From an uncultured Bacteroidota bacterium (GTDB lineage: Bacteria; Bacteroidota; Bacteroidia; Bacteroidales; DTGW01), in the NCBI GenBank assembly GCA_963851385.1, contig CAWKPE010000013.1, positions 233,753 to 297,752 of the forward strand: a DNA stretch of 64,000 nt, in the 5' to 3' direction. The notes below the pieces were generated by a model. The model had not been told where the DNA came from. It did not search any database and saw only the letters and a program-made list of their open reading frames with translations. Within the stretch, counting starts at the first letter, position 1; every line of letters starts with the position of its first letter. The translations under genes and the position numbers were made by a program. Shown in pieces: positions 4,801-59,900 of the stretch.

Positions 4801-4826
4801 TTGGCATATTGGCATATTGACACATT
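4801..4826. repeat. 8-bp tandem array ttggcata x2 + ttgacaca
   Basis: Read directly between the two TldD/PmbA genes. Same word family as 17461, 35847 and 36221. Confidence 0.6.
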
Positions 4827-4828
4827 TT

Positions 4829-6523
4829 TTATTTTGTAATTTTTTCAATATCCGGCCTCGGTAATAAAGGCATTTGTCCATAGCTTTCAGGTTGTTTTTG
4901 TGTTTCGATTTTCGTGATGAAAAGTGAAGGTGAGACTGCTGTCACCGGTATGGTTCCTGATTCTGCCCCGCAATAGCCCGTAAACATTCCAATGCTATCG
5001 CCGGTAGCTTCAACATTCGAAAAAATAGTTAATGGAGTTCCTATAAAATTAACACCTCTTACAAGTTCATCGGGTCTTCCATCAACATATATTTTATAAA
5101 CAACCGTAGGTTTTACATTAAAAACGTTAGGTGTGTATCTGTTAGTAAGAGTGAAACCTCCTACAACCTGGTCAAAAAGAAATCCATAAGTTTTATTATT
5201 CTTCTTGCATTCTGCTATCAGCTTTTTTCTAAGTTCTTTATCAGTTGATGGTTTTCTCGTCTCAACTATAAGATTCGACTGCCTCGCAACTGGTGACATA
5301 CCTGCCTGGGAACGACCATGCCCATTTGAGTTTGGAAATCCGTCTATAGGACACCGGGACATCAAGAAGTTTTCTAATATACCATCTTTAACTATATTTA
5401 CCCGTTGTGCTTTAACACCCTGATCGTCGAATTTATAATATCCGAACATATCTTTTCCTTTAAATTGTGATTGTAATGGATCTGATATAATATCAACATA
5501 TTTTGGCAATACATGAGTGCCAATTTTCGACTTAAATGTTTGACTGTCGAAATCGCTTTTTAGTCTGTGTCCTTCTATACGGTGTCCAAAAATCTCATGG
5601 AAAAATACTGCCGCAGCACTTGGTGAAAGTATTGCAGGGCCCGAATATGCATCAGCCTCCGGAGCAGTTCTTAACTGCTTCAACTGTATCATCATTGCTT
5701 TAATATCAGTTACAATTTGTGCATCGGGAGTCAGCTTTTCAGGCGTGAAGGCATAATATGAACGGAAAAGCGGCAGAACGCTGCCATTATCAGCTTTAAT
5801 TATTGCAAGAATTTGAAGCTGGCAATAGCTTGAATTTTGAACAATCTTACTTCCTTCTGTTGAAACAAAATACTTCCTGTCAGTAATAAATGAAAGAATT
5901 GCATCTGCTGAAATTATTTTGTCGTCTTCGAGAAATGGCTCGGAATATTTCTTTAATCTTTTTATCCAGGCTTCACTATCATTAAAAGAATTATTTACCG
6001 GCGCTTCATAATAAACTTCTGGTTTCTCAATCGAAAAATCAGTAGTCTTTTTTTGCAAAGTTTCATCTTTCAAACTGCTTTGTACCTGGTTAAATGCATC
6101 AACAGCATTGCGATATGCATAATGTGTAGCTTGCCATAATGATTGTTTTATAGCAATTGGAACATTTTCAAATGGCAATTTAATAGCAAAAGGCTGAGCT
6201 AAACCACCAATTCCATATGTTCCATTAATCTCATGAGTATTATCAAAATCATAATTGCCGACTCTTACTGTTGCAGTAAGAATACGTCCATTATCTTCAT
6301 TTTTGCTGACCAGACTGCCAAATGAGGTACTTATTGTAGTACTTTTTATATCGTCAACGCGATATTCAATATAATATGGAGCTATGGTCTGCGTTTTCAA
6401 TGTTTCCATCTCCCTGTTAATCTCATCCGATAAAATATTAGTCAGAGTATCTTGCGCATTTACGTTAACAGACATTAATACGACTCCTAAAATAATATTT
6501 ACTAAAATTTTCAACTTAATCAT
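4829..6523 (-). CDS. TldD-like zinc metallopeptidase, secreted
   Basis: Signal peptide. HEIFGHRIEGHR (HExxxH-type TldD motif). ..NSNGHGRSQ..ARQSNLIVE.. matches the TldD/PmbA C-terminal core. Confidence 0.8.
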   Translation of the reverse strand: MIKLKILVNIILGVVLMSVNVNAQDTLTNILSDEINREMETLKTQTIAPYYIEYRVDDIKSTTISTSFGSLVSKNEDNGRILTATVRVGNYDFDNTHEINGTYGIGGLAQPFAIKLPFENVPIAIKQSLWQATHYAYRNAVDAFNQVQSSLKDETLQKKTTDFSIEKPEVYYEAPVNNSFNDSEAWIKRLKKYSEPFLEDDKIISADAILSFITDRKYFVSTEGSKIVQNSSYCQLQILAIIKADNGSVLPLFRSYYAFTPEKLTPDAQIVTDIKAMMIQLKQLRTAPEADAYSGPAILSPSAAAVFFHEIFGHRIEGHRLKSDFDSQTFKSKIGTHVLPKYVDIISDPLQSQFKGKDMFGYYKFDDQGVKAQRVNIVKDGILENFLMSRCPIDGFPNSNGHGRSQAGMSPVARQSNLIVETRKPSTDKELRKKLIAECKKNNKTYGFLFDQVVGGFTLTNRYTPNVFNVKPTVVYKIYVDGRPDELVRGVNFIGTPLTIFSNVEATGDSIGMFTGYCGAESGTIPVTAVSPSLFITKIETQKQPESYGQMPLLPRPDIEKITK

Positions 6524-6813
6524 TTTATTTTTCGAAATAAAAAATTTAAATACTCCAAAATAATGCCAAACCTTTTTTTAAAAGTTTCAAAAGTAATAAA
6601 AAATTTATAGCTCATTTTTTAATTAAAATTCTTGAATATTTATTGAATGAACGAATTATTATCTGTTACATTATGTTTTCCTTATTATTATTAATAACAA
6701 ATTCAACAATTCATTTAGTTTAAATTTAAACTTAATTAACAATTACTGTTCTATTTTGATGTTGAAATTAAGTATTTCCTGATTATGGATACTTGATTCC
6801 AGATTTTTTTAAC

Positions 6814-8973
6814 TTATTTGCCGTCTTTAGCTACCGGTTCTTGATCCAGCGTATCTTTTAATGACAATTGGATTCGTTTTCTTGCAACGTCAACTTCAAT
6901 TACTTTTACTTTTAGATGTTGATTCAACTTCACTACTTCAGTGGGATCAGATACAAAGCGGTTTGCCAATTGACTTACATGCACCAACCCATCCTGGTGA
7001 ACTCCAATATCAACAAAACATCCAAACCGGGTAATATTAGTGACTATACCGGGTAAAATCATCCCGGGTTTTAAATCTTCCATTTTATGCACATTTGGGT
7101 CAAATTCAAATACCTTAATAATTGTTCGTGGATCGCGACCGGGCTTGGCAAGTTCCTCTATTATATCCTGCAAAGTAGGTAAACCTATTGTACCGGAAAT
7201 ATATTTTTTAATATCAATTTTAGAACGAATTTCAGGTTCTTTGAGTATTACTTCGACATTTGACCCAAGATCATTAGCCATTTTTTCTACTACGTGATAG
7301 CTTTCCGGGTGAACTGCACTATTATCAAGTGGATTTAAAGCATCTGGTATGCGAAGAAATCCAGCACTCTGCTCAAATGCTTTATCACCCATTCTTGGTA
7401 CTTTCATTAATTCATGACGTGATTTAAAGGGTCCTTTCGCTGAACGAAAATCCACAATCTTTTGTGCAAGTGAAGGACCTAAACCAGAAACATAAGTCAG
7501 CAACTGCTTGCTTGCAGTATTCAGGTTTACACCAACCTTATTAACACAAAGTTCAACTTCCTGGTCAAGGGTAAGTTTAAGTTTATTTTGATCAACATCA
7601 TACTGATATTGGCCAACACCTATAGACTTTGGATCAATTTTAACCAGTTCAGCCAGTGGATCCATTAAACGACGGCCAATAGATACAGCGCCCCGGACAG
7701 TTACATCATATTCAGGAAATTCTTCACGTGCTATCGAAGATGCCGAATAAACAGATGCACCGCTTTCATTGACAATGTAGACTCTAACATCGCGTTCAAA
7801 TCGAACTGTTTTTATAAAGCTTTCTGTCTCCCGACCTGCCGTACCATTGCCAATGGCAATAGCTTCGATTTTATAAGTATTTACCAGTTGGTTAATTTTG
7901 GCTGCAGATGAGCCTCTTTCGTTTTGAGGTGGATGCGGATAAATGGTTTCATTGTGCAGCAAATTACCCTGGGAATCTAGGCATACCAATTTACATCCGG
8001 TGCGAAATCCAGGATCAATAGCTAAAACATTTTTCTGTCCAAGTGGAGGAGCAAGCAATAGCTGATGGAGGTTTTCAGCAAAAACTTTGATAGCCTGATC
8101 ATCGGCTTTTTCTTTAAAGCTATTTTTAATTTCTGTTTCTATTGAAGGTCCAAGAAGTCTTTTGTAAGAATCAGATATAGCAATTTTGACATGTTCTGAA
8201 CATTCATTTTTTGCCTTGATAAAATATTCATGAAGAATTTGAATTGCTTTTTCTTCATCAGGTTCAACGGAAATCTTCAGAAAGCCTTCTTCTTCACCAC
8301 GGCGCATAGCCAGATATCTATGAGAAGGACAACGTTTCAGTGGTTCATTGAAATCATAATAATCTCCATATTTTATACCGTCCGGTTCTTTGCCTTTTAG
8401 AACTTTTGAATAAATTAAAGCCTCGTGATTAAAAATCCGGCGCATGGCATTCCTGGCATATTGATCCTCGTTTATCCATTCAGCAATAATATCGCGTGCT
8501 CCATGAAAAGCTTCATCTACCGTATCAACTTTCTCATTTATGAAAGCCTCAGCTTTTTGTTTCAAATTTAGTTCCTGCTGCTTCATGATCAGAGTTGCAA
8601 GCGGTTCAAGTCCCTTTTCTTTTGCCATGCCTGCACGTGTCTTCCGCTTGGGCTTATAAGGTAAATAGATATCTTCTAATTCTGATAATATATAAATTGA
8701 TTCCAGTTTTATCTTCAGTTCATCCGTCAATTTACCTTGCTCTTCTATTGAATTAATAATTGTTTCGCGGCGCTTATCAATTTCAATAAATTTGTTCCAT
8801 AAAGTTTTAATTTCAGCTACGGCAACTTCATCCAGGCTTCCTGTAAGTTCTTTCCGGTATCTGCTGATAAAAGGAATAGTAGCTCCATTTTCCAGCAACT
8901 CAATTGTATTAGCAACCTGATCTTCTTTAAGATTATTCTGTTTCGAAATTAATTCAACGTGTTTCTGAATCAT
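6814..8973 (-). CDS. tex: Tex transcription accessory protein (S1 RNA-binding domain)
   Basis: 719 aa. N-terminal ..GATIPFISRYRKELTGSLDE.., YqgF-like centre, C-terminal S1 domain (..GIVTNITRFGCFVDIGVHQDGLVHVSQL..). Confidence 0.9.
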   Translation of the reverse strand: MIQKHVELISKQNNLKEDQVANTIELLENGATIPFISRYRKELTGSLDEVAVAEIKTLWNKFIEIDKRRETIINSIEEQGKLTDELKIKLESIYILSELEDIYLPYKPKRKTRAGMAKEKGLEPLATLIMKQQELNLKQKAEAFINEKVDTVDEAFHGARDIIAEWINEDQYARNAMRRIFNHEALIYSKVLKGKEPDGIKYGDYYDFNEPLKRCPSHRYLAMRRGEEEGFLKISVEPDEEKAIQILHEYFIKAKNECSEHVKIAISDSYKRLLGPSIETEIKNSFKEKADDQAIKVFAENLHQLLLAPPLGQKNVLAIDPGFRTGCKLVCLDSQGNLLHNETIYPHPPQNERGSSAAKINQLVNTYKIEAIAIGNGTAGRETESFIKTVRFERDVRVYIVNESGASVYSASSIAREEFPEYDVTVRGAVSIGRRLMDPLAELVKIDPKSIGVGQYQYDVDQNKLKLTLDQEVELCVNKVGVNLNTASKQLLTYVSGLGPSLAQKIVDFRSAKGPFKSRHELMKVPRMGDKAFEQSAGFLRIPDALNPLDNSAVHPESYHVVEKMANDLGSNVEVILKEPEIRSKIDIKKYISGTIGLPTLQDIIEELAKPGRDPRTIIKVFEFDPNVHKMEDLKPGMILPGIVTNITRFGCFVDIGVHQDGLVHVSQLANRFVSDPTEVVKLNQHLKVKVIEVDVARKRIQLSLKDTLDQEPVAKDGK

Positions 8974-8982
8974 AATAATTGG
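8895..8982. repeat. Direct repeat copy A (tex start codon + first 26 codons + ~9 nt 5' flank)
   Basis: 88 nt aligning with 17282-17370: 4 substitutions and 1 single-base indel. This copy is contiguous with intact tex. Confidence 0.9.
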
Positions 8983-9420
8983 TCGTTAGCATATAAACAG
9001 GAAAGTATCAATTTAATGCCCAAAATTATAAAAAGATATTATGAATAAAGGCATATATACATATAGAATTTCTGAAAATGTCAGTTGCAAGGAGATATTG
9101 AGATGATACAATCTTTAATAAGAATACTTTGCTTTGCGAACAGGCATGATTGGGCTTTATTAAAAGGTAATTTGTAAATATTTATTAACAATTTTAAAAA
9201 TTTATTTTGCAAATTCAATTTAATTTTCAATTTTTGCAATTGACATATTAATTTCATTCCCAAGTATTTTAATTTTTTCAATAGTAATATACACCTGAAA
9301 GTATCTAATTGCGGGATTTTTAAAAATATTTTAAAAAAAGTTAAAATATTTTGGGAACATTTTGAAAAAATTGAATCTTATAAATAGGATAAAATTATTT
9401 CTAATAAATAAAATATTACA

Positions 9421-9453
9421 AGCGTAAGCCGAAAAGCTTTTGAAGAGTAGGCA
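9421..9453 (+). promoter_or_regulatory. Conserved leader/promoter-proximal motif, copy 1 (agcgtaagccgaaaagcttttgaagagtaggca)
   Basis: Near-identical to 59901-59930. Ends 20 nt before the ATG at 9474. Confidence 0.5.
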
Positions 9454-9473
9454 AAGTTCTAAATAAAACCTTT

Positions 9474-10778
9474 ATGAAAACTATTAAATTATTTTTTCTT
9501 ATTAATTGTATAGTAGTGTTTTTTATAACTAATGTACAAGCGCAAACGAATGTTGCTGCTGCTCCTACCAAGCCGGTATTTTTAATAAATGGTACATGTT
9601 CCACTACACTTTCCTATATGAATGATGGTAATACATCTACATTAGCCAGTCTGTATTATCCTGGCGCTATTTCCTTTTATATTGATTTGGGGAATGGAGC
9701 TGCGAATTATTTTGATCTTACCTCTACAACAATTTATTGGGCAAGTGGAAATTATTTAACAAGTTATACTATATACACATCACCTGATAATACCAACTGG
9801 ACAGTTGCTGCAACAGCCACTAATTCAAGTCTTACAGATAAACAAACGCTTACTGCAGGTAAAACTTACGTCAGGTATGTGAAATTAATAGCAGGTAATT
9901 ATGTAAATCTCTATAATATTGGAATTTATGAATTTCAAGTATATGGTTCACCCAGTATTTCATTACCGGCTTCGTTCAGCACAATAAATGTTTCAAGTAC
10001 TGCTACTTTTGGTGCTACAGCTTCATTTACCGGGGGAATTACAGCAGGTGCTTTAAACACGCCAACTATAAATAATTCGGGTAACTTGAATCTGCAAACT
10101 GGCGGAACAAATAGAATCACTATTCTCAACCCAAGTGGTCAGGTAAATATTTTAAATGATTTTTCAGTTTCTGGTAATACAACTACAGGTGCTATTTCTG
10201 CAGCAAGCTTAACAACAACTGGAAATGTTGGTATTGGTGGTACTCCAGATGTAAATTCTAAATTAAAGATATATGGAAGCCAGCAATGGCATTTAGTTAC
10301 TGATGCAAATCTTGAAATTTTAAATTGGACTTTAGCAGGACCCAACTCCGTTACGTTTAATGCATTTAATGATGCAAATACTGCTGCTGCACCAATGGCA
10401 TTTTCTGCAAGTGTTTTTGTTTTTCATGCAGGAAATGTAGGTATAGGTTGCTCTAACCCAACTTCATTACTTACTGTAAATGGAGTAATAACAGCCCAGG
10501 AAGTAGATGTTAAAAACCCGGTGCCAGGTTGTGATTTTGTTTTTGAAAACAATTATAAATTAAAAAGTTTACCTGAAATTGAAAAATATGTTAAAGAATA
10601 CAAGCACCTGCCCGAAGTGCCTTCAGCCATAGATTTTGAAACCAAGGGTTGCAACATCGGAGAAATGAATAACATTTTACTGAAAAAAGTTGAAGAGCTT
10701 ACTCTTTTAATGATCGAACAAAACAAACGTATTGAAGCCCTTGAAAAAGAAAATGCAGCGCTTAAAACAACTAAATAA
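9474..10778 (+). CDS. Secreted discoidin (F5/8 type C)-like protein with tail-fibre-like repeats and conserved coiled-coil C-terminus
   Basis: Signal peptide ending ..NVQAQ. Discoidin-like ..YIDLG..YVRYVKL..IYEFQVYG. GNVGIG repeats. C-terminal ..DFVFENNYKLKSLPEIEKYVKEYKHLPEVPSA..LLKKVEELTLLMIEQNKRIEALEKEN, typical of Bacteroidota tail-fiber-domain proteins. Confidence 0.7.
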   Translation: MKTIKLFFLINCIVVFFITNVQAQTNVAAAPTKPVFLINGTCSTTLSYMNDGNTSTLASLYYPGAISFYIDLGNGAANYFDLTSTTIYWASGNYLTSYTIYTSPDNTNWTVAATATNSSLTDKQTLTAGKTYVRYVKLIAGNYVNLYNIGIYEFQVYGSPSISLPASFSTINVSSTATFGATASFTGGITAGALNTPTINNSGNLNLQTGGTNRITILNPSGQVNILNDFSVSGNTTTGAISAASLTTTGNVGIGGTPDVNSKLKIYGSQQWHLVTDANLEILNWTLAGPNSVTFNAFNDANTAAAPMAFSASVFVFHAGNVGIGCSNPTSLLTVNGVITAQEVDVKNPVPGCDFVFENNYKLKSLPEIEKYVKEYKHLPEVPSAIDFETKGCNIGEMNNILLKKVEELTLLMIEQNKRIEALEKENAALKTTK

Positions 10779-10856
10779 AAAGACATTTGCTAATACTGTA
10801 TACAAGTTTTATTTTACTAAACATTTTTAAAATGCAATAAATTTAAATTACAAGTA

Positions 10857-13800
10857 ATGAAAAAAATAATAATATGTTGTTTTGCCCTGCTGCTTTTTGT
10901 TAGTAGCTATGCACAGGAAGGGTGTCAAAAAAAAGGCTGGGATGCAGTAAAATACTATAATAGCGAACGTGAAAGAATACGTGACAGTGCTGAGTTTATT
11001 TTCCAGGGTGTGACTAATTCTATTGATTACTATAACCGTATTGATAAAAACGGCAAAGAATATGTTGCATATTCCCGAATTGTAAAAGTTACTAAAGTCT
11101 TCAGGGGCAAAATTAGGCCAGGCACAGTCGTTGAAATAGTTGGGAAAACGAGTTTCCAGGTTATCACCAATGAACCAAGAAAAACTAGAGACTTGAATGG
11201 CGATTCTCTTTTTGTATTTTTCTGCCGGTTAGCCAAAGAATTTCCTTATGACCCCAAATACAATATAAGCCCTGTAGACAACAAAATAATACTTACATCT
11301 TTCAGTGATATTGGGAATATTAGTATTATTCATCAAACTGGGCTCCGCAAAAAGTTTGCTTCAAAAGGAGAAATTTACAGGTATATCAGTACATTTCCAA
11401 ATATTAAAATGCCCGTTATTTCAAAAGAAGATACAGTTTTTCCGGATAGAATAATACATAAACCAATGACTTTGCCTGGGCATACAAAAGACTATATCGA
11501 TTCGGTGAAGCGCGTGAAAGAGTCTAAAAAAAAAATTAAATCATTAACCCTAAGTAATTCTGGGATAATACCTGTTCCGGCAACAGAAGAAATAATTAGG
11601 ACAAATGTCAAAGCACCAATATTAAAACCTTATTCTTCAAAACTTAAGTCTGCCACTGATGACGATTATGTCGATATTATATATGACGGTTATGATTATA
11701 CTGCTAATAGTAAAGATATTACTTTTTCTTATAATGGTAGTAATATAGATGTGACATTAACTTATGATGCTGAACTTGAAGAAGATGATATAAATATAGA
11801 AAGTGCCGTTTGGAGCTCAAGTGATGAATCTATTGTAAAGGTTGTCGATAATACTAATGGAGAGTTTAAAATTATAAAAGGGCCAGGTACAGCAACAATT
11901 AATTTAATTGTAACTTATGACTACCAATATTGCTATACAGATCCAACAACACAGAAACCAGTCTGTTTTCCAGAAACCACTTATGTGGCTGCTTCAGTCA
12001 ATATTGTTGTAACTGTTCCCGCCACAGGTGTTGATGTTGAGCCGAAAATAATAGCCCTTATGTATGCCGGCACATCAAGTGAATTAATAGCAACACCCAA
12101 ACCTTCCTATGGTACATATAAGATTATTCAATGGTACTCAAGTGATTTAAGTATTGCAACTATTAATGATAATTGCGATGGAACCTGTACCGTATATGCC
12201 ATTAGTTCTGGTACAGTTAATGTTTACGCTATACTCACTTTATTAGATGGCACCACAACATATAAAGATAATTGTAGTATTACAGTTTATCCATACATTA
12301 ATAATATAATAGCTAGCCCTGCTTTTAACGCAGGGGACAATCGTTGTTTTATTACAATTTCAGGCCAGGGTTTTGGCAATTCCCAGGGAAAGAGTTATAT
12401 ATCTTTTACTACCGCAGACGATGCCACTGGGACTATGTATCCGGACCCTGATAGTTATGATTATTTAACTAACTGGTCCCCTACACAAATACAAATGTGG
12501 TTACCTGGTCAAGTTAGTTATATTTATTTATATAATGAAACTATTGGTACGGGTGATGTAAATTTTACTTATATAGATGCTAATAATAATCAATACACAA
12601 GTAATTGCTATAATATTATAATTAATCATAACTATTTACAATATATTTCTCCTGATGGTTCACATAAGTATTGTGAAAAACCACATGAAACTTCTGTTAA
12701 TACAATAGCTTTTAGTCTTGATACCCATTTAAGTAATAATGCGAAAAATGCAATTAATCGTGCAATGGCCGATTGGAATTGCGCCCTTTCCAAAAATGGC
12801 ACTCCAATCAATTTTACAATTAACCAAGGCTCACCTAATCAAATATTAATAGGGTACCCTAATAATGATAATGCCATGGAAACAGATCCCTCCGGCACAC
12901 TAAATACTGCCGGTCAAGATTGTTATCTCACTATTAATACAATTACAATAAACAAAATAATGTACAACAATAATATTTTTTCTTTTACTTTACCAGGTCA
13001 AGGAATAATAGATGCAACTGAAGATAATTTTTATTTTGATATATTGCACGAATTCGGCCATGTGTTAGCATTAGGCCATGTAAATAATGCAGATGATTTG
13101 ATGAATTATACAGTTAATAATGTTTATGGTTTAAGTAATCCAAACAATGATAATTATGCACTTGTTGATGCACAAACCAGGATTACAGCAAGTGAAAATC
13201 GGGTCTGGATAACTGCTTCATGTGCTTCTACATGCATTGGCCCGTCATCACCAGTGCTTACAGCAACAAAAAATGGTTCATATAAAATAGACCTAAACTG
13301 GACATATTCGATGTCAGATGTAGATTCTTACAATCCTCCCAGCTTTGATATTTACCGGGATGGTACATTAATCAGTTGGTTACCTTATAGTAGTTTAATA
13401 GGCATATCGATCTAAGGTTCTCAATATTATTATCAGGATAATAATTTAAATGCAGGTACACAACATACTTACTGTGTAGTTGCAAAGAACTCAGATGGTG
13501 AGGGTTCATTTAATACAAATCCATCGAACCAATCCTCAGCCATTACAGATGCTGCGGCTCCATGTAGTTCAACGGGTTCAGTTCAGACTTCTTGTACTTC
13601 ATGCTATCCCACAATTACCTGGTCCGACAATTCAACAAACGCAACAAAATATAACATATTGCGCTCAAGTGATGGAATTAACTTTTCTCAAGTAGCTAGC
13701 GTGAACTCTACCAATTCAACATTATCTTATACCGATAATGTGTCGACCTGTACTGGTAAAGTATATTATTACAAAATTCAATCTGTGAATCCTGAAGGTA

Positions 13801-14348
13801 CTGCCAATTCATCTATTATTATTATTGGCTTTGCGTCATGCAGTAACACTTCAAATATAAATTACACAGCTTCTTCGCAGGTAAAGGCATATCAATACAC
13901 TACAGGCACAATAACAGCAGGCACAAATATTACCATTGGTAACGGAACGATTGTCGGTTTTTATGCAGGTTCCGGTATACAACTATTATCCGGTTTTTCT
14001 GCAGTAATTGGAAGTACTTTCCAGGCACAAATTGTAGCTTGTACAAGTAATACACAATCGGCTATGAAGGATAGCCTTGGCAATAATTCTATAACTGATG
14101 TTCCTGCAGTGAATACTGGCACAATAAAAATTTATCCAAACCCGACAACAGGTTTGCTTACTATTGAAACCGGTGAAAATAAAGCTACCATTGGAATTTA
14201 TAATATATATGGTAGTTTGTTGAAACTACAACAGCTAACGGGTAATATAAATCAAACCGATATTAGTAATCTGGCTGCAGGCACTTATATAATAAAAGTA
14301 GTTACTAATAGCGGACAGCAAAAAGAACAATTAATAATTAAAAAGTAA
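10857..14348 (+). pseudogene. T9SS-sorted multidomain metzincin-like surface protease (Big_2, IPT, HExxHxxxxxH, 2x FN3, Por C-terminal domain) with one in-frame TAA
   Basis: Frame 3 is open over 10857-13412 and 13416-14348, interrupted only by TAA at 13413-13415 inside an FN3 repeat (..DIYRDGTLISW..SI*GSQYYYQDNNLNAGTQHTYCVVAKN). HEFGHVLALGH. C-terminal IKIYPNPTTGLLTIE...GTYIIKV is a T9SS CTD. Confidence 0.75.
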
Positions 14349-14371
14349 AATTGCTTTTGCTTGAATAAATT

Positions 14372-14410
14372 AAAGAGGCTGCCTAATAATTAGATAGCCT
14401 CTTTATGTTT
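14372..14410. terminator. Hairpin between convergent genes (aaagaggct / agcctcttt)
   Basis: 9-bp stem and 15-nt loop, T-rich on both sides. Lies between the protease (+) and acyltransferase (-) 3' ends. Confidence 0.55.
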
Positions 14411-14477
14411 AAAAGGTCATCAACTCTGACAAACGTCTCGCTATTAAGCGTCGAACTAATTAATAAACATTACCCGT

Positions 14478-15629
14478 TTACAAGTGAAGATTAACCCAAA
14501 TTTTCCATTTATCTCTTAAATCCATAATTGGCTTTTCATAATATTTATAAATCAATGTGGAAAATACTATGACAACAGTCCAATATATTACATATAAAGC
14601 CCAAGCCGTGTGAACTCCACGAGGTGGAAAATGATCACGCATTATTTCAGAAACAAGCGCCAAATTAATCAAGTACATTGAATATGAAATTAAACTTATA
14701 TGAGTAAATATTTTTGTTATAATTAGTGGAGCTTTTTTAATACTGTCAAACTTTGGTAAAAGTAAAAAACATCCAATGCTTTGAAAAAATATTTGAAATA
14801 CTTTAGTAGAAAAGTCATTAGGCAACCAAGTTGTATAAAGAATTGTATAACTTATTACTAATCCTAATATAAAACTAAAATTTCTACTTTTAATCCAAGA
14901 ATTCGGAAACCAATATTTAATAAATGCAGCTAAAAGTCCTAATGCAATGCCATCTAAACGATAAATAACTACTTTAAATATTTTCACACCGAGCCAAAAT
15001 TGATCAACATTAAACTTCGATGCTTTAAAAAATCTTAAAAGAAATGGTATAAGCAAGAAAATTATAATTGCATAAAGAAAAATAGACTTTTTATTTATTT
15101 TATAGCCTTTTAAAATGAAATAAAAAATGCCTAGAATAATTGGAAATAGAAGGTAAAACCACTCTTCAATACTTAGGCTCCATGATTCCCAAAAGAAACC
15201 AGTAAATGGCCCGGAAAAATTTTGAAGAAAAAAGAAAAATTTCCAATTGAATTGTGAGAAATCTTCTTTAATTATTCCAAAATAAACAACAATTATATTT
15301 AGAATTAATATTAAATAATAGTTCGGTAAAGTACGAAACCAACGTCGAATCCAAAAATTACTAATTACTTTTATCCCAAATGAATTATTTTTTTTAAAAG
15401 TTTTTATCAATATTCCTCCAATTAGAAATCCACTAAGTACAAAGAATAACTCAACACCATTTATTAATCGAATCCAAGGAAAATTAGTATCAATTTTTTC
15501 TAGCATTGAGGCATGTCCCATGACAACAAAAATAATTGCAAGAGATCGCATTAAGTCAAGTCCAAATACTCTATTTTCATAATCTGGTCTTAATCGAAAT
15601 ATATTTATAAATCTATAAATTATAGCCAT
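14478..15629 (-). CDS. Acyltransferase family 3 integral membrane protein (OafA-like)
   Basis: ..GLDLMRSLAIIFVVMGHA.. plus about 10 hydrophobic segments. ATG at 15629 preferred over the TTG at 15647 in the ORF track. Confidence 0.75.
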   Translation of the reverse strand: MAIIYRFINIFRLRPDYENRVFGLDLMRSLAIIFVVMGHASMLEKIDTNFPWIRLINGVELFFVLSGFLIGGILIKTFKKNNSFGIKVISNFWIRRWFRTLPNYYLILILNIIVVYFGIIKEDFSQFNWKFFFFLQNFSGPFTGFFWESWSLSIEEWFYLLFPIILGIFYFILKGYKINKKSIFLYAIIIFLLIPFLLRFFKASKFNVDQFWLGVKIFKVVIYRLDGIALGLLAAFIKYWFPNSWIKSRNFSFILGLVISYTILYTTWLPNDFSTKVFQIFFQSIGCFLLLPKFDSIKKAPLIITKIFTHISLISYSMYLINLALVSEIMRDHFPPRGVHTAWALYVIYWTVVIVFSTLIYKYYEKPIMDLRDKWKIWVNLHL

Positions 15630-15679
15630 TTTCTTAGTACATAACAAAAATTATACAATGCATTGATTACTAATTAAAT

Positions 15680-15707
15680 GCACGCTTTTTGTTAATAAAA
15701 AGCGTGC
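15680..15707. terminator. Perfect 11-bp palindromic hairpin (gcacgcttttt-gttaat-aaaaagcgtgc)
   Basis: Read directly. Located upstream of the acyltransferase start, so it may insulate that gene from rightward-origin minus-strand transcription. Function uncertain. Confidence 0.35.
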
Positions 15708-15984
15708 AAAAATTTGTTTATCACATTGATATTCTATTTATTATCATCGTAAACCAAAACGATGTTAACTATGAATACCAATATTGACTGTAAAACTAAT
15801 CAATTCGTTGTAAAACTCAAAGAAAAAACCCAGTGGAACCTGAGGTTCTTCTTACAAAAATACAAAATTGGAGCGCTTTAAAGAAAAAGTAAGGATTTTG
15901 AAAAAAGAAAGTACTAAGGTTTCAGAGTTGAAAGAGTGTAAGCAAACCTTAACTCTTTCTCTGCAAATAAAAATAGGATTGAAT

Positions 15985-16131
15985 GGAGCAAGCTGGCTGC
16001 GTCCCGTGTGTAAAAAGTGAGTGTAGGGAATGAGACGGGTCCAGTGCAGTGTAATGAAATCTTATTTTGTGCGCCAGCTGGGGTCAGCCCCTATATAGCG
16101 CAAGTCTTCAGGACTTGTGCTTCTTATTCTT
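15985..16131 (+). ncRNA. Candidate free-standing structured sRNA (unclassified) with intrinsic terminator
   Basis: G+C-rich patch in AT-rich spacer with no ORF. Nested helices: 15991-16000/16071-16079 and 16003-16007/16035-16039. GGGG-TCAG-CCCC at 16080-16091. Terminator hairpin 16098-16120 followed by TTCTTATTCTT. Confidence 0.4.
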
Positions 16132-16215
16132 GCAGTTTATAACTGCCAATAAATATTATTTCTAATATAGTCTAAGTTAAAAACTTGAACTATTAAAGGG
16201 AATCCGGCTTTTGCT

Positions 16216-16419
16216 TTAAATATCTTCTTTATCAATACCCGCCTGTTTAAGGAGTGAAAAGAAAAGACCTTTGGCAAGGTCTTTATTGCCATGTACAGGA
16301 ACTATAATTGTTTTACCGGTTTTAGGGTTATAATACAAATGATGGCTGCCATTGGCACGTTTAAAGTAAAAGCCTCTTTTTTCTAGTACCCGGATTAATT
16401 TTTTAGCCGAATAGTTCAT
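16216..16419 (-). CDS. hicA: HicA family mRNA interferase toxin
   Basis: 67 aa. ..KKLIRVLEKRGFYFKRANGSHHLYYNP..GKTIIVPVHGNKDLAKGLFFSLLKQAGI is a canonical HicA pattern. 4-bp overlap with hicB. Confidence 0.85.
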   Translation of the reverse strand: MNYSAKKLIRVLEKRGFYFKRANGSHHLYYNPKTGKTIIVPVHGNKDLAKGLFFSLLKQAGIDKEDI

Positions 16420-16643
16420 GCTGTCTGCAGGTTTAAAGAGTATTCCAAAGTATCGCTATCATCGGGAATCTCTTCGCCACGTTCATGAAGCTCTTCAATA
16501 TAAAGCTCTATAGCTTCTTTTGCCATTTGAATAGCATGTTCTACTGTCTCGCCAAAAGTCATACAGCCAGGCAAAGCCGGCACAGAAACAGTATAAGAGC
16601 CTTCCGGCTCTTTGTGTATTAATATTTTATAAGTCAGTTGCAT
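16416..16643 (-). CDS. hicB: HicB family antitoxin (UPF0150)
   Basis: 75 aa. ..YKILIHKEPEGSYTVSVPALPGCMTFGETVEHAIQMAKEAIELYIEEL.. is a HicB N-domain pattern. Confidence 0.8.
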   Translation of the reverse strand: MQLTYKILIHKEPEGSYTVSVPALPGCMTFGETVEHAIQMAKEAIELYIEELHERGEEIPDDSDTLEYSLNLQTA

Positions 16644-16654
16644 ATTTTTATTTT

Positions 16655-16786
16655 TTAATGAGCCAATTGTAAAGCACTTGATAAAGCGTCTTTTAGTTTT
16701 TTCTTACCTACGGGAACATCCTCAAGAGAAAAGACGATTGTCGTTTCTTCGTCATTGAGTTCTTCAATAAGTTTTATTTTCCCTCG
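16655..16786 (-). pseudogene. Start-less 43-codon C-terminal gene remnant immediately upstream of hicB
   Basis: Open frame RGKIKLIEELNDEETTIVFSLEDVPVGKKKLKDALSSALQLAH*, bounded upstream by TAG with no ATG or GTG and only one TTG, three codons before the stop. Ends 11 nt before the hicB ATG. Confidence 0.3.
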
Positions 16787-16790
16787 CTAA

Positions 16791-16822
16791 GCGTAGTTTT
16801 TTTAACTACGCTTTTTTATTTT
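16791..16822 (+). terminator. Intrinsic-terminator-like hairpin (gcgtagtt-ttttt-aactacgc + TTTTTTATTTT)
   Basis: 8-bp stem followed by a T-run. No obvious + strand gene upstream. Confidence 0.5.
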
Positions 16823-17042
16823 GTAGTTTTCAACTACACCTACGGCTAAGCGAAGTATGCAAATATAAGAAAAAAGGAAGAAAGGCTAAACGTAGTTTTC
16901 TCTTAACCGCACTTTTTTAATAAAATTTGTGAAATTCGGCTATTACATTATTTATAAATATCTTTCCCAAATAGCGCATGTTTATTAATCTTGTGCCTCT
17001 TTCTCATGGAGTTTTTAACCCCTTAAATGGCGCAAGTTTCTG

Positions 17043-17201
17043 AGGGTGTCTCAAAAGTTATTTTTCATTGTCATTCCCGCGTTCCGAACCATCGGAAGCG
17101 GGAATCTATATATAATTGAGTGTGTGAAGATTCCCATTCCCGAAAGTTCGGGACATGGGAATGACAGTTTTGAGTTTTGAGCCACTTTTGAGACGGCCTC
17201 T
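17043..17201. mobile_element. MITE-like nested palindromic element (outer arms gagggtgtctcaaaagt / acttttgagacggcctc; inner tgtcattcccgcg..gggaatgaca hairpins)
   Basis: Outer arm pair 17043-17059/17185-17201. tgtcattccc 17070-17079 pairs with gggaatgaca 17158-17167. Internal hairpins at 17074-17106 and 17131-17163. Confidence 0.65.
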
Positions 17202-17281
17202 TTTTATTTTGTAGTTTCCCTAGCACGGAGTGTGTCCACTTACTTCAGAATACAATCCGCGCCAGCTTATGCCAACTTAAG

Positions 17282-17370
17282 GCAATTCAATGGTATTAGC
17301 AACCCGATCTTCTTTAAGATTATTCTGTTTCGAAATTAATTCAACGTGTTTCTGTATCATAATAAATTGG
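17282..17370. repeat. Direct repeat copy B (orphan tex 5' end; ATG at 17360, stop at 17277-17279 on the minus strand)
   Basis: Encodes MIQKHVELISKQNNLKEDRVANTIEL-P-stop, versus tex MIQKHVELISKQNNLKEDQVANTIEL.... Confidence 0.9.
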
Positions 17371-17460
17371 CAGTTGATTTTGGTCAGAATTCAAAAATAA
17401 TATTTATTATCCGTTAAAAATAATTACACGCATTAATCATTAAAAATAAGCTATGAATAT

Positions 17461-17496
17461 ATTGGCACATTGGCATATTGGCACATTAGCACATTT
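17461..17496. repeat. 8-bp tandem array attggcac/attggcat/attggcac/attagcac
   Basis: Read directly, ~90 nt upstream of the likely SusC start. Confidence 0.7.
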
Positions 17497-17583
17497 ATGT
17501 TTCAAGTTTGTTTGAAAGAGAAATTATCCTTAATATTGTATGCTAGTGAAAAAGTGTTAAATATCATAAGAAAATCTAAATCT

Positions 17584-20500
17584 ATGAAAAGAACCGGAGT
17601 ATTGCTGCTGTTAATGTTTTTACTAAAGCAATTTGCCTTTGCTCAAACAACAATCACCGGAACTGTTACAAGTGCAGATGATGGTTTGGGGTTACCAGGT
17701 GCATTTGTAGTTGTAAAAAGTTCAACTAACGGTACAGTTACCGATATAGAAGGTAAGTATAAAATTACGGTACCTCAGGGCAGTACTTTGGTATTTAGTT
17801 TTGTAGGAATGCAACCGCAGGAAATTCCGGTAACAGATCAGACTGTTATTAATGTTGTTCTTAATGCTATTGCAACAAATGTTGAAGAAGTTATAGTAGC
17901 TGGCGTTGCCAGTGCTACTCCACGCAAAAAAATGAGTGTTTCTGTAAGTAAGGTAGATTCAAAAGACCTTGAATCTGTGCCTGCCACTTCAACAGCAACG
18001 GCTCTCCAAGGAAGAGTTGCTGGGTTAGTAGTTGTTAATTCCAGCGGGAACCCTGGACAATCTTCCGGAATCAGATTAAGAGGTTCCACTTCAATATACG
18101 GCAGTACTTCTCCTTTGATTATAGTTGATGGAGTAATGATGGATGGCGATATGGCTGATGTAAACAGTGATGACGTTGCCGACTATCAAGTTGTAAAAGG
18201 TGCATCTGCTTCTGCACTCTATGGTTCTCGGGCAGGAAATGGTGTAATTGTTATTACAACAAAAAGAGGAAATTTAGCAAAAGAAGGAAATACAGAGATA
18301 AGATTCAGAAGCGAATATGGTACTTCCGATCTTATAAAAGAAATAAAATTAAATGAACATCATGACTACAGGTTAGCTGATAATTATAAACAGGATGGTT
18401 ATACAAAATATTACGGAGTAACCTATCCAACCAATTATGATGGAGGACCTACAAATGATATTTTAGGAACCAGGACACCTGATTTTGACCACTATTCTGA
18501 TAATCCCTATTCATTTGCTAATGATTTGCAAAAGGAAATATTTCCAAATGGTAACTTTTATACAGAATATATTTCAGTAGCTTCCAATAATACAAATTCA
18601 GATTATCTTATTTCATATGAAAATAACCACAACTCAGGAATTGTATTTAGTAAAAATGGTTCTACCAGACAAAACATACGTCTTAACATTGATCTGAAAA
18701 TATTTGAAAAGCTAAAGCTTTCTATAAGTTCTTTATATATTCAAACAAAATTAGATTTACCCAATGGTGGAGAAACAGTAAGTGACGGCGGTGGAGAACT
18801 GAGCGCATTTTCTGATGTTCTGTTTATGAATCCTGATGCAAACCTTAATATGGCTTCACCTGATACAATGATACTAAAGAAATATTACTATAAACCGGAT
18901 TATTGGGCATTAGCAAGCAATCCTAAACATTCTCTTTATTACGAGCAGCGTAATACTGAAAGAAGTTCCTTCATGCCTGATTTCTCGCTTAATTATAAAA
19001 CCTTTAGCTGGATGGAACTTGAAGCAAATTATAGTTTTGAAAAACGAAATATAATGTATACTCAATATGATCCTGTAGGTTTTATGGGACTCAATGGAGC
19101 AATTACAGAATGGTGCGGAAGAAAAAATCGCTTTTGAAAGTTTGGGTCAAACGTTTCAATCCACCATTAATTTAAATGGAAAATTTGGTGATTTTGTTGC
19201 AAAGGGCAAATTAAACTTCACTTATGAAAAATTCGGTTCCGATCAGTTTTCGGTAACAGGTGTTAATTTTTTGTTATCAGGTATTACAAGTCTACAGGAT
19301 TTAGTAGGTAAAATAACACCTACATCGTTAATTATTAATACCGTTGCTAAAAATTATTCTGGTATCGCAGATTTGGATTATAAGGGTAAATATATAGCTT
19401 CCATGCTATACAGAATAGATGGTTCATCGTTATTTGGCCCAAATAACAGGTGGAACCCTTATTATCGTATTTCCGGTGCGTACAGGATTGGTGAGGATTT
19501 AAAAATACCAGGTATCCAGGAATTAAAATTAAGGGCAGCTGTAGGGACATCAGGCCAAAGGCCAGAATTTAATTATCAGTATGAAACATTCACAATGGAA
19601 AACGGTGTTCCTATTGGCTATACATTGGGCAATAAAAATTTAAAACCTTCTGAAACAAAAGAAACAGAACTTGGAGTAAATTGCGAATTTCTTAACAAGT
19701 TTGAACTGGAAATAATTCAATCTTTTAACGAAACAAATGGTGATTTTATGAACGTTCCTTTATCTGCTGTAACAGGTTTTCGCTATCAATGGCGAAATGC
19801 AACAATAATAAAAGGAACTTCTTTTGAGACAACTTTAGGGGCCCAAATTATTAAATCGAAGGATTTGGATTGGAGGTTTAATCTTACTTTCGATAAAATG
19901 AGCCAAAAAATTTCTGCATTAGAAAACACTAGTGCATTCTCGACTGGTCCAAAAAGTGCATTTCGTGTTCAAGCCGGAGAACCTTATGGAATTATGTATG
20001 GATATGCATGGGTAAAAACTATACAGCAAATGGAGCAGCAGCTTCCAGAGGGTAAAACTATTGATGATTATACTGTTAACAGCGAAGGATATGTTATTCC
20101 AAAAGGCACTGAAGGTACACCTTATGAAATACCCATACCCTATGATAAGAATAAAGACGGACAACCTTATGAAATTGCGGATATGAATCCAAGATTTAAT
20201 ATGTCGTTCTCTACTAATTTGGAATGGAAAAATATTTTATTTTCTATGCTATGGAACTGGAAATGCGGAGGCAACATTTATAATGAAACAAAGCAAATGT
20301 TATTCCGGGATCAAAGGGCGGGCGTAAATGATCAATATGGCAAACCCGAGTATCAAAAAAAGACAACTGATTATTATAATACTTTCTATTACCAGGATAT
20401 TACAAATTCTTATTTTGTTGAAGATGCCAGCTATCTGAAATTAAGAGAAATGTCAATATATTATTCTTTTAGCAGCAAATTTTTTAGTAAGGTCGGTATC

Positions 20501-20678
20501 AGTTTCATTAAAAATGCTAAACTTGGTATATTAGGTCGAAATCTTCTGACTTTTACTAAATATACAGGATGGGATCCTGAAGTATGCAGATATTAACAAC
20601 CCTACAAGTTTCATTTTTGATGATTTCAGTTACCCCAATTATAGAACAATATCGGCATCATTAGAAATTAACTTTTAA
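17584..20678 (+). pseudogene. SusC/RagA-family TonB-dependent outer-membrane transporter, at least 2 frameshifts
   Basis: Signal peptide from ATG 17584. CarboxypepD_reg (TITGTVTSADDGLGLPGAFVVV..) and plug domains. Frame changes near 19090-19137 and 20578-20590. The canonical C-terminus ..YPNYRTISASLEINF* is only in a third frame, ending at 20678. Confidence 0.8.
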
Positions 20679-20727
20679 ATATTGAAACAAAATGATGTGT
20701 GTTGAATTTTTTAAAAATATTTTGAAG

Positions 20728-22271
20728 ATGAGAAAGTCGTTGTTTTTTATATTGGTTCTTATAATATATTCATGTAATAAGGATATGGATATTCCTGACA
20801 CGAATGATCCAAACAGATCTAACGTTAATTCTTCTTCCCGCGATGTCGAAAATGTTGCTGAAAGTGCTTTCCTGGCCTATTGGCAAGCTACCAGATCTAC
20901 TACTAGTGGTGGTGCTAATCTTTATGGTACTTCCCTTGTAGCTGCTGATCAATTTACAGCAAGCTGGTATAACTTTGCATGGGGATATGTATCTGCCGAA
21001 CCACGCATCCCATGGAATAATTTAGTGACATTTGATGATGCAGATGTAACTACTGACTTTTATTATTCGATGTATGGTGTTTTGTCCAACTCAGTAAATC
21101 CCGTAATTGATCTCATCCTAAATAAAAATTTCAAACTTGGAAATAACGGTCAAGACAATCCTGCAATTTTAGCTTTGTGTTATTTTTTACAGGGTGCTAT
21201 TTTAGGCAATTTAGGTTTGTGCTTTGACAAAGCAATGATTGTAAAAGAAAATACTGATTTGGGAAATATTAAATTTTCAAGTTATAATGAAGTAATGGAT
21301 GCTGCAATTGTATCATTGGAAAAAACTGATTCAATTTGCAAAACAAATACTTTTCAGTTAGATCCAAGTGTAGTAAATGGATACCTTTTAAACAATGACA
21401 TTCTCAAGCGTTTAGCTAACTCATATATGGCCCGTTTCCTGGCCCTTACACCAAGAACTAAAGTTGAAAATAGCCTGGTAGACTGGGATAATGTGCTGGC
21501 ACATGCTCAACAAGGTATAAATAATGATTTTTATGCTGATGGTGATGCCACATACCTTCAAGGTGGCAAATGGTATGATAATAATTTTTATTATCTTGAC
21601 TAACCCTGAAAATGGTACGTTTGCCTATGCCTTTGTTGATTGCCGTTTAATTCATATGCTGGATCCTGATTACCCTGCCCGTTATCCTTCTGATGGAATA
21701 GCACCACAGGTTCATAGCGATTTGCGACCCGGAGAGGCAAAATCTAATGATCATCGCCTTGCGGCGGATTTTACATATTTTAGTTCTTGTGGTTTTTATG
21801 CTAGCAGAGGTTATTACAACTTCTCACATTATCAATATTCAAGATACCCGGATATCAGAACAACCGGTGTGGCCTTATTGTATGATTTCAGAAAATATGA
21901 GAACGATTTGTATATGGCAGAAGCTTACGCTATGTTAAATCAACCAGATAAAGCACTTGAAATTTTAAATGACCCTGGAAATCCGAGATTAGACCCGACT
22001 AGAGGTGGACTAAATCCTTTGCCGAGTACTGCTGGCAACCAGACAGATTCTTGATGCTATTTTTTATGAAAGAGAGATTGAATTGTTAGCACAGGGATTT
22101 ATGGTAGGTTTTTGTGACATGCGCCGGAGAGATATGTTACAATATGGCACGTACCTTCATTACCCGGTTCCCGGTAAAGAACTTGAAACACTACAATTAC
22201 CTAACTATACATTTGGAGGCGCGGGTAATGCTGATGGAGTAAATACTTCCAATGGCGGTTGGTTTAAATAA
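20728..22271 (+). pseudogene. SusD/RagB-family lipoprotein, 2 frameshifts
   Basis: Lipobox ..LIIYSCN. Pieces lie in frames 1, 2 and 3 (20728-21603, 21524-22054, 22083-22271). ..ILDAIFYEREIELLAQGF.. is the typical SusD C-terminal helix. Confidence 0.75.
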
Positions 22272-22425
22272 AAAAATTCAATGAGAGAATTTGAAAACTC
22301 GTTAATAAAAGAAAAATAGAATAATGGAAAAACTGGTGTAAGAACCTCCTAGCGGTTTTGAGCCGCTTGGAGATTAAGCCATCTGGACTTTAAATTTTGA
22401 ACTTTAAACCTTGAACTATAAAAAT

Positions 22426-23209
22426 ATGAAAATCAAAATTCCTAATCTGATCATGACCTTGATTTTTACAGCTATGACAATCTCATCATGCAAAAAGGAA
22501 GAGAGTTACAATTGGAAAAATATTGATCCGGGGAAACAACAAATATCCGGACCAGATTCAATCAAAGGAAATGACAGTACTGTCTATGAATATCTTGCCA
22601 TTCCAAGGGGAGGATCAACATATTCATGGGAAGTATTGAGTGGGCCTATAACTATCAAGGTAGATACTTTAAACAAAGATCCTCTGCATTATCATCCCTT
22701 CAGAGCTGAAATAACTGCAAATTCTTCCATCGATACAACCGGGTCTTTTGTAGTTAGAGAAACTACCTGGGCCGGTAAACCGGGAATAGCAGATACTTTT
22801 AAGATTCAAAAAATACTTTGTTATAAACCATTCATTCCTGATAGTTTTGTAGGAGAATATACTTGTCATGAAAGTGTTATAAATAACATTGATAATTCTT
22901 TTAGTAACGTCTGACCCATTTATCGTTACCCTCTCGTATTTAGGCGGGGACACCGTTCAGATTGATAATTTTTATGGCACACAAATATCTTTAAATTACA
23001 TAATCAGCAGGGATAAAAATGAAAACCTTACAGTAGTAAATACTTTGACTGATGAAATAACAAATGCTTATTTCGATGATATAGCAGAAATAAAGGGCTA
23101 TGGTTCATATAGTTCATGTAACAAAACTATCACGGTAGATTTTTTTATTATAGATGCTGCAGTAGGCGATACTATTATTACCGGAACAGATAATTTTATT
23201 CATAAGTAA
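22426..23209 (+). pseudogene. PUL-associated lipoprotein of unknown function, 1 frameshift
   Basis: MKIKIPNLIMTLIFTAMTISSCKKE lipobox. The frame switches near 22870-22905 between the 22411..22914 and 22889..23209 ORFs. Confidence 0.55.
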
Positions 23210-34279: not shown

Positions 34280-35156
34280 ATGATTAAATCAATGACGGGT
34301 TACGGAAAAGCTTCCTGTAATTTTGAAGAAAAAAATATTATTGTAGAACTTCGTTCGGTAAATAGTAAACAACTGGATATTAATAGTCGTATTCCATTCA
34401 ATTATAAAGAGAAAGAATTGGAAATACGGGGTGAAATATCTCGTATTGTAGAAAGAGGTAAAGTTGATTTCTATATAACAATTGAACAAAATGAGCCTGG
34501 AAAACCTGTAAAAATAAATAATGCTGTTCTACTGGAATATTTCAATCAAATAAAATCTGCGGCAACTGAAATAGGAATTTCTGTTACTGAACTATCATTA
34601 ATTGCAGCTTTACGGCTGCCGGAAACTCTTAAGACAGAAATTTCTGAATTATCGGAAAATGAATGGATTATTTTATTGAAATGTATTAAGGATGCACTTG
34701 TACTGTTTAATCAATTTCGAATACAGGAAGGGCTGGCGCTTGAAAAAGATTTGTTATCCAGGCTGGATTTAATATTACTTTATCTTTCAGAAATGGAACA
34801 ATTCGAATCTGCTAGAATTGATAGAATTAAAAATAGACTCCAAAAGAATTTAAATGAGTTTATACCTGCCGGAAATATTGACGCCAATCGTTTTGAACAG
34901 GAAGATTATTTACTTCCTCGAAAAACTTGATTTTACCGAAGAAAAAATACGATTGAAAAATCATTGTAACTATTTCCTGAAAACCATGAAACAGGAAGAA
35001 TCTCAAGGGCGTAAATTGAGTTTTATTGCCCAGGAAATGGGACGTGAAATAAATACTATTGGTTCCAAAGCAAATGATTATGAAATTCAAAAAAATGTAG
35101 TAATGATGAAGGATGAATTGGAGAAAATCAAGGAGCAGTTATCGAATATATTATAA
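34280..35156 (+). pseudogene. yicC: YicC-family stress-induced protein, 1 frameshift
   Basis: MIKSMTGYG.. N-terminus. The frame switches at ~34901-34906 (removing g34904 restores ..FEQEIIYFLEKLDFTEEKIRLKNH..). C-terminal ..GRKLSFIAQEMGREINTIGSKAN... Confidence 0.75.
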
Positions 35157-59477: not shown

Positions 59478-59900
59478 TATTTGGAACTAATAAACAAATA
59501 TAAGGAATTATGATCATAATTGTCATTGAAAATCAGTGAAATATTAAGTTCTGCTCATTAGTTCTTTTTAGGTAATCAGGCAAAGGCTTAATACTAATAG
59601 AATATGACAATAATCTACATCCAATACAACTTCATCATGAACGTTTCAGATTACGGATTAATCATTGAGCGGAAATGTTATTCCTGTCCCTGAAAATGGA
59701 AAAGAAAATAAAATAAAATAAAATAAAAGTAAAAATGAGATAAATTTTGCAAAAATTTGTACTTTTTTTTAAAAAAAAGACTTAACAATTTGCTTGCAAG
59801 TGCTTTTTTAAAATTATTTTTTGTATTTTTAACTAATTACTCTTATTTATATTAAATAAATAGTAGTAAGAAGTATTTTGAAATTCAAAATAAATTAAAA

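Follow-up and report, generated by a model that had tools for sequence, protein, structure and literature searches.

How does the start of a housekeeping gene come to occur twice, with more than 8 kb of unrelated-looking DNA between the two copies? The question is raised by the tex locus in a 64,000-nt stretch of contig CAWKPE010000013.1 from an uncultured Bacteroidales bacterium (this whole stretch is called the window below). The initial annotation had read the locus as the footprint of a site-specific element that entered the 5' end of tex and supplied a replacement for it. Comparison with related loci argues for an insertion of about 8.3 kb of accessory DNA at this site, and as its best explanation we favour, tentatively and at slightly less than an even chance, a one-off insertion with long target duplication, confined to the lineage of this genome.

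A repeat search of positions 6000-20000 gave 8895-8978 and 17282-17365 as the longest direct repeat, with 80 of 84 nt identical in an ungapped alignment (95%) and a spacing of 8387. Past a 1-nt indel (AATAA-TTGG against AATAAATTGG) the match extends to 8982 and 17370, and it ends on both sides, giving full copies of 88 bp (A, 8895-8982) and 89 bp (B, 17282-17370) with an insert of 8,299 bp between them. The repeat spans tex from -10 to +78 (codon 26), 78 of its 88 nt being coding, and the longest run identical in both copies comprises 49 nt (8919-8967, equal to 17306-17354). Searched with blastn-short, the whole window yielded this pair with E = 2e-34 and no third copy. Similarly, tblastn with Tex as query led to only two matches in the window, the full gene and residues 1-26 at 17360-17283. 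The open reading frame (ORF) of copy B reads MIQKHVELISKQNNLKEDRVANTIELP before its stop codon (27 codons on the minus strand, ATG at 17360, stop at 17277-17279), with one Q-to-R change compared to Tex. The initial annotation is borne out in these points: tex start and first 26 codons present twice in direct orientation, four substitutions and one single-base indel between the copies, an orphan copy B, and an abrupt end of similarity on either side. The locus is thus composed of the following parts:

6814-8973, minus strand: intact tex, 719 aa, with Pfam domains Tex_N, Tex_central_region, Tex_YqgF, HHH_3, HHH_9 and S1; the protein is 86% identical to P0002 and its first 26 codons lie inside copy A.
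8895-8982: direct repeat copy A, the tex 5' end continuous with the tex body.
17282-17370: direct repeat copy B, an orphan tex start (ORF 17277-17360, minus strand, 27 codons) at what appears to be the ancestral tex position, 87% identical to the tex start of L081.
17371-17583: native divergent intergenic region of tex and SusC, homologous to the DNA upstream of tex in L086, L085 and L081, with a promoter box and TTGGCAYA repeats.
17584-20596, plus strand: SusC-like TonB-dependent receptor, the ancestral divergent neighbour of tex, with Pfam domains CarbopepD_reg_2, Plug and a beta-barrel domain, and a signal peptide from the start at 17584.

Which of both copies occupies the original site was deduced from relatives. 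The nearest Tex among GTDB representatives is 70% identical, and the nearest ones in a large protein collection, the source contig aside, are 86, 85, 84, 83, 81 and 79% identical, with none between 86% and 100%. The native layout was read from five relatives, L081 (86% Tex identity), the contig of P0004 (84%), L082 (81%) and L083/L084 (79%). In every relative at 79-86% with upstream DNA on its contig, a SusC-like receptor gene lies directly divergent from tex at a distance of 170-450 bp, and in L081, L085 and L086 a PmbA/TldD gene follows downstream of tex, as in the window. In L081, L085 and L086 the tex start is present once and both copies align with it, homology carrying on along the outer flanks only. 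On the side of copy A it ends at 8973-8983, the DNA to the right of this copy aligning with nothing in the relatives. On the side of copy B it comprises the stub (87% to L081), intergenic DNA (77-93% to L086, in two segments) and the start of SusC, and the sequence that follows this copy on the right can be aligned to the native DNA between tex and SusC in L085, L086 and L081. Deletion of the block together with one repeat copy leaves 223 nt between the ATG of tex and that of SusC (17584), which is inside the range of the relatives. Because the relatives have tex and SusC in divergent orientation and the right flank of copy B matches their intergenic DNA, the 8.3-kb block is, judged by synteny, a lineage-specific insertion relative to all close relatives found, with the empty site inferred at the level of genus or family, and by the same comparison the stub marks the ancestral position of tex. 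The empty site expected by the initial annotation is present at 79-86% Tex identity, where tex abuts SusC-type intergenic DNA without the block; an interior shared in conserved synteny, which it had named as evidence against an integration, was not encountered, the block being absent from the relatives' tex loci.

The native promoter appears to have stayed behind. A conserved box of the Bacteroidetes type (TAnnTTTG) is found on the minus strand at 17392-17399 as TATTTTTG, 31 nt before the ATG of the stub, and aligns with TAATTTTG in L085 and L086. It is part of a minus-strand block to the right of copy B, GGATAATAAATATTATTTTTGAATTCTGA, that is nearly the same in L085 and L086. By this homology the native tex promoter box is now facing the stub only, in agreement with the earlier proposal that the native promoter lies right of 17370 and drives nothing but the orphan. 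A motif scan of the insert upstream of tex led to a sole minus-strand TAnnTTTG box, TAATTTTG at 9021-9028, 47 nt before the ATG. As the motif has a background of 0.66 occurrences per kb per strand, this box is a candidate for the new tex promoter and nothing more. tex would now depend on a promoter within 8983-9473, and transcription from the ancestral promoter probably still enters the stub and the right end of the island. The tex/SusC intergenic region also carries an 8-nt tandem repeat, TTGGCAYA, in 3-4 copies at 17461-17492, conserved in L086; it occurs again at 4801-4824 between two PmbA/TldD-family genes and may be the binding site of a regulator.

The kinship of both copies was examined over their 78 coding nt by comparison with L081, derived bases being judged against five outgroups. 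Copies A and B differ at 4 of the 78 positions and each of them differs from L081 at 10, and 4-5 bases common to A and B are present in none of the five outgroups. Private to copy A are two synonymous changes, ATT (codon 2) and GAG (codon 25); private to copy B are CGG at codon 19 (Q to R) and the synonymous ACC at codon 23. That three of the four differences are synonymous does not discriminate between the models, copy A being under selection in each. On these counts A and B are sister sequences that split after the lineage had parted from that of L081, with roughly equal change on both branches. Since the copies are closer to each other than to L081 and share derived bases, the duplication would have taken place inside this lineage and from one resident sequence. 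Such a relationship fits a duplicated resident target and speaks against a foreign 'replacement' 5' end, so that the import of the left copy proposed by the initial annotation is not confirmed. Beyond -10 about 4 of 8 nt agree, so that the identity of both copies is there only about 50%, compared to 95% within the repeat.

We were further interested whether the block brings along its own means of transfer. No recombinase or transposase was detected among the island ORFs by Pfam, and neither was found among the ORFs of at least 150 aa in the window, as had been noted before for integrases, recombinases and transposases. In the two right-hand non-coding stretches, to which the scan was confined, Pfam gave no match in any of the six frames of 16644-17281 or in the four frames covered of 15648-16215. 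The ends of the island show no terminal inverted repeats, their best inverted match scoring 18 against a shuffled mean of 15.4 (sd 2.4). A DNA transposon, insertion sequence or miniature inverted-repeat transposable element (MITE) was rejected from these missing ends and from the length of the duplication, 88 bp instead of 2-14 bp. A prophage remnant was likewise not supported: phage structural, replication and lysis genes are absent, the only PHROG matches are to Ig-domain, O-acetyltransferase and HicAB 'moron' families, and distant blastn of the island DNA gave no match in 50,697 phage records or in plasmids. Having neither a recombinase gene nor transposon ends, the block is today, as far as can be read from its genes and ends, a fixed, non-autonomous and apparently immobile insertion.

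Recurrence was examined in 86 tex loci, 80 from species representatives and 6 from close relatives, each including at most 10 kb of upstream DNA. A second tex 5' fragment within 10 kb was found in none of them, and none encodes island proteins near tex. Among 121 ORFs within 3.5 kb upstream of tex, the 25 commonest families include no recombinase, singletons being possible; what is usually encoded there is a SAM-dependent methyltransferase and a 3'-5' exonuclease. When viral contigs were scanned with the tex 5' motif for a tex-like attP, one chance match without tex homology resulted. No related island was detected in genome representatives, metagenomes, phages, plasmids or viral contigs, where the hicAB cassette described below alone has relatives. 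Of the site-specific element suggested initially, the direct repeats of a gene end with tex intact could be confirmed; a recombinase or its remnant and any recurrence could not, and tex as a recurrent target is not supported by the 86 loci.

Between both copies the block contains the following features:

8983-9473: non-coding left end of the insert, not homologous to what lies upstream of tex in any relative, with the candidate promoter box and a DUF805b RNA motif.
9474-10778, plus strand: secreted F5/8-type-C (discoidin) protein (Pfam), its C-terminal part like Bacteroidota 'tail fiber' proteins.
10857-13415, plus strand: protein with Big_2 and M10 (matrixin) domains (Pfam), probably the front of a broken gene of about 1150 aa.
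13659-14348, plus strand: fragment with the C-terminal sorting domain of the type IX secretion system (T9SS; Por_Secre_tail, E = 1.5e-13), a probable metzincin tail.
14478-15647, minus strand: Acyltransferase-3 family membrane protein of the O-acetyltransferase type (Pfam Acyl_transf_3; PHROG O-acetyltransferase, E = 2.7e-30).
15648-16215: non-coding DNA, in which hairpins at 15679-15708 and 16097-16121 resemble terminators, without a supported RNA gene.
16215-16708, minus strand: hicB-hicA toxin-antitoxin cassette (Pfam; hicA 16216-16419, hicB 16416-16643).
16709-17281: non-coding right end of the insert with hairpins, an inverted repeat with 39-nt arms at 17069-17166 and a 17-nt repeated motif; six-frame Pfam analysis was empty.

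Non-coding DNA between the copies totals about 1.7 kb. The description of the interior as accessory throughout was confirmed by Pfam for the F5/8, M10/Big_2, Acyl_transf_3, HicA and HicB domains, with the qualification that metzincin and T9SS domain are found in split ORFs. The F5/8 protein has its best relative in P0121 (59% identical), the remaining matches, common in Bacteroidota, cover its C-terminal part only, and no PHROG family was matched. For the metzincin the sole relative among 5.8 billion proteins is P0281 (1145 aa, 30% identity), and a metagenome scan with the protein gave no relative, which suggests an unusually isolated, nearly orphan secreted metalloprotease. As P0281 carries Matrixin and Big_2 domains and runs on into Por_Secre_tail in one protein, the M10/Big_2 ORF and the ORF of the sorting domain appear to be one gene (10857-14348), broken in two places.

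The hicAB cassette is 83-87% identical on the DNA level to the unrelated metagenome contigs L088-L092, with similarity that stops at the cassette edges, and in a metagenome scan based on hicA only these 0.5 kb of the whole island were shared with other contigs. The HicAB proteins fall into 90%-identity clusters with metagenome-assembled genomes named Salinivirgaceae, Lentimicrobiaceae and Bacteroidales, and Tex is about 65-70% identical to those groups. Because the cassette is much closer to these groups than Tex and its similarity ends at its edges, it is, on this comparison, a separately mobile module that moves horizontally on its own.

Two elements proposed earlier for the non-coding DNA were not supported. 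The candidate small RNA had no Rfam match and a fold z-score of -1.28, and the supposed MITE reflects the single inverted repeat with 39-nt arms, of which the window holds no other copy. Composition, suggested as a means to tell the interior from its flanks, is uninformative: GC is 0.327 against 0.319, and by tetranucleotide distance the block takes third place among 56 sliding windows, a value that is not extreme and resembles the neighbouring SusC region, so that the block is not convincingly set apart. Several further features of the non-coding DNA were observed. The 17-nt motif TTTTTATTTTGTAGTTT is found exactly at 16813-16829 and at 17201-17217, at least the first of these copies coming right after a terminator-like hairpin, with a similar third copy at 4825-4843. 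Plus-strand terminator-like hairpins at 16097, 16789 and 17069-17166 lie in island DNA without plus-strand genes. The Rfam motif DUF805b occurs twice in the window, at 9419-9453 (plus strand, 40.8 bits) and 59899-59930 (38.1 bits), in both cases some 20 nt ahead of an ORF on the plus strand, the F5/8 gene at 9474 in one case and an ORF of unknown function (59949-60533) in the other, and neither ORF belongs to DUF805 by Pfam.

Outside the block, the genes next to copy B read as interrupted. The SusC-like receptor shows two frameshifts, near 19101-19106 and 20587, and is 73-74% identical over three frames to the intact 1040-aa protein of L081. The SusD-like gene is split (20692-21603 and 21524-22054), as is a gene of about 250 aa (22411-22914 and 22889-23209), the relatives having a single gene of 514-521 aa and 250-254 aa respectively. 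Over 17584-23209, either the whole SusC operon is decaying or the assembly contains indel errors. Truncated-looking genes were also observed further away, with an adh_short (205-657) matching profile positions 101-194 only, a YicC (34280-34930) with the N-terminal domain only and an ABC_tran (36510-37022) beginning at profile position 46, so that pseudogenes or frameshift errors may be numerous throughout the contig.

Insertion with long target duplication, described by Kobayashi's group (Nobusato et al. 2000; Furuta, Abe & Kobayashi 2010), comprises inserts of <20 kb without mobility genes between imperfect direct repeats of 30 to about 400 bp, both of which align with one single-copy target in a genome with the empty site (PMC2853133). 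Published repeat identities are 70/76, 82/90, 94/103 and 201/223, and for one case in Neisseria gonorrhoeae the empty-site reference was the record of an N. cinerea tex gene (PMC2853133). The tex locus studied here resembles this class in an 8,299-bp insert, 88-bp repeats with an identity of about 95%, which is in the published range, a single target, and the lack of mobility genes and transposon ends, hicAB counting as a toxin-antitoxin pair and not towards mobility. It differs in its host and cargo, the published cases being mostly from naturally competent Proteobacteria with restriction-modification genes, whereas here the host belongs to the Bacteroidales and the island has no methyltransferase or endonuclease domain by Pfam. 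It differs also in its repeat, which is mostly coding and has cut off a housekeeping gene from its promoter.

If this explanation is right, accessory DNA of about 8.3 kb would have entered at a point 10 nt before the ATG of tex, and during the insertion the target would have been duplicated over 88 bp, from tex -10 to +78. The resulting layout would be the tex body with copy A, the insert, and copy B with the native promoter and SusC. Copy A would keep tex whole and the inserted DNA would have to supply its promoter, possibly from the box at 9021-9028, while copy B would be a dead stub of 27 codons retaining the ancestral promoter. A likely route would be foreign or relocated DNA joined at staggered breaks, the stagger equalling the repeat length, by end joining and fill-in. 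The hicAB cassette, and probably other pieces too, would have been added or remodelled later. A RecA-dependent deletion via the 49-nt core might put tex back behind its own promoter.

Several points weigh against this explanation. The class is a descriptive one whose mechanism has never been demonstrated, and restriction-modification genes are part of its published cases, most of which stem from naturally competent species; these genes were the search criterion of the published survey and not a mechanistic requirement (PMC2853133). A repeat that preserves the gene start and is accompanied by a plausible promoter is also a hallmark of integrases acting on gene 5' ends. The empty site is seen solely in relatives that share 79-86% Tex identity, at the level of genus or family and not within the species, and the insertion junctions are known from the assembly alone. 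Finally, just past -10 copy A (GCTAAC) is nearer to the leader of L086 than copy B is, which could mean an origin in another tex allele, the sample being too small to say more.

A serious and only slightly less probable competitor is the decayed remnant of an integrative and conjugative element, an integrative and mobilizable element or a prophage. Its tyrosine or serine recombinase would have used an attB around codon 26 of tex, the element arm supplying codons 1-26, leader and promoter, and later deletion of the recombinase module would have left attL and attR. The locus has much of what this demands, namely direct repeats of a gene end flanking an island, a restored gene, a TAnnTTTG box 47 nt upstream, and a sharp repeat edge at codon 26/27 that could be the crossover side. 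SXT in prfC and the dusA islands operate exactly so, restoring the target gene and bringing a promoter (PMC8409611). With them the block shares an insertion within the first ~30 codons, a frame restored by a second 5' copy and a native promoter left with the orphan. About 1.2 kb of gene-free, hairpin-rich DNA beside copy B, the broken metzincin and the mobile hicAB would also fit heavy decay and remodelling, and elements that keep att sites without integration genes are well known as cis-mobilizable elements (CIMEs; PMC5704250). Such a gene-poor accessory block between gene-end direct repeats, without integration or transfer genes, is what we find at tex.

The kinship of the copies argues against this origin. 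The copy supposed to be borne by the element is the sister of the resident one and has lineage-specific bases, whereas integrators of 5' ends bring diverged N-termini, in the case of the dusA islands 61% identical to the resident (PMC8409611). These integrators also encode an integrase and an excision factor by att and recur in many genomes, and neither trait was found for the block: the island holds no recombinase or remnant of one, the 86 tex loci contain no second case, and no recombinase is among the common families upstream of tex. Relatives of the island are missing from phage and plasmid records and from the metzincin metagenome scan, and viral contigs offered no tex-like attP. As a CIME is recognised by an autonomous relative that shares its att site and no such element was found, the block cannot be called a CIME on present evidence. 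We consider it quite unlikely that the tex 5' end is the attachment site of an undescribed Bacteroidales element family, with a recombinase acting in trans from another place in the genome, a non-autonomous block that is still mobilisable and a promoter swapped at each entry and exit.

Improbable, too, is a single crossover of the Campbell type, in which a circle from a sister strain that already carried about 90 bp of the tex start recombined with the resident tex to give two hybrid copies. It needs no recombinase, the 49-nt identical core is long enough for RecA, and the copies are close sisters; the weak likeness of the leader of copy A to that of L086 hints at another tex allele. The problem is only moved back, however, as the circle must first have acquired exactly tex -10 to +78. 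In addition, the DNA upstream of copy A is not homologous to the conserved native promoter, so the donor locus would have been no normal tex locus, and no donor was found. Homology-facilitated illegitimate recombination, with a sister-lineage donor bringing tex along with its native upstream DNA, was rejected for the same lack of homology to the native promoter block.

An assembly artefact, with copy B or a junction made by mis-joined metagenomic contigs at the shared 49-mer, is very unlikely. The source contig may be a metagenome assembly, several neighbouring genes are split, and the sole independent assembly, Logan contig L087 (run ERR10755942), extends from 14333 to 16993, short of either junction. 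The 17281/17282 junction, however, lies outside the identical core and cannot be created by a k-mer join, the four differences between A and B form an evolutionarily sensible pattern, and the position of the stub is precisely the one expected for the ancestral tex start, beside homologous promoter DNA; L087 itself is 100% identical to the island interior. That the block is ancestral and was lost in the relatives by recombination between the repeats is hardly credible and was rejected: such recombination would leave a clean empty site and the composition is host-like, but the copies, with 4/78 differences against 10/78 from L081 and shared derived bases, are younger than the split from L081, and several independent precise losses would be needed.

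The finding is incremental under either of the two leading explanations; the type of insertion has already been described and no new mobile element is involved. Nature offers here a clear case of a housekeeping gene, the conserved tex, that was severed from a strongly conserved promoter and apparently left running from imported DNA. If the block is a decayed integrative element, it merely adds tex to the long list of gene-end targets. If a recombinase-free origin is true, it would extend insertion with long target duplication to the Bacteroidales and to cargo other than restriction-modification genes, and would bear on how accessory genes can enter genomes without classical mobile elements.

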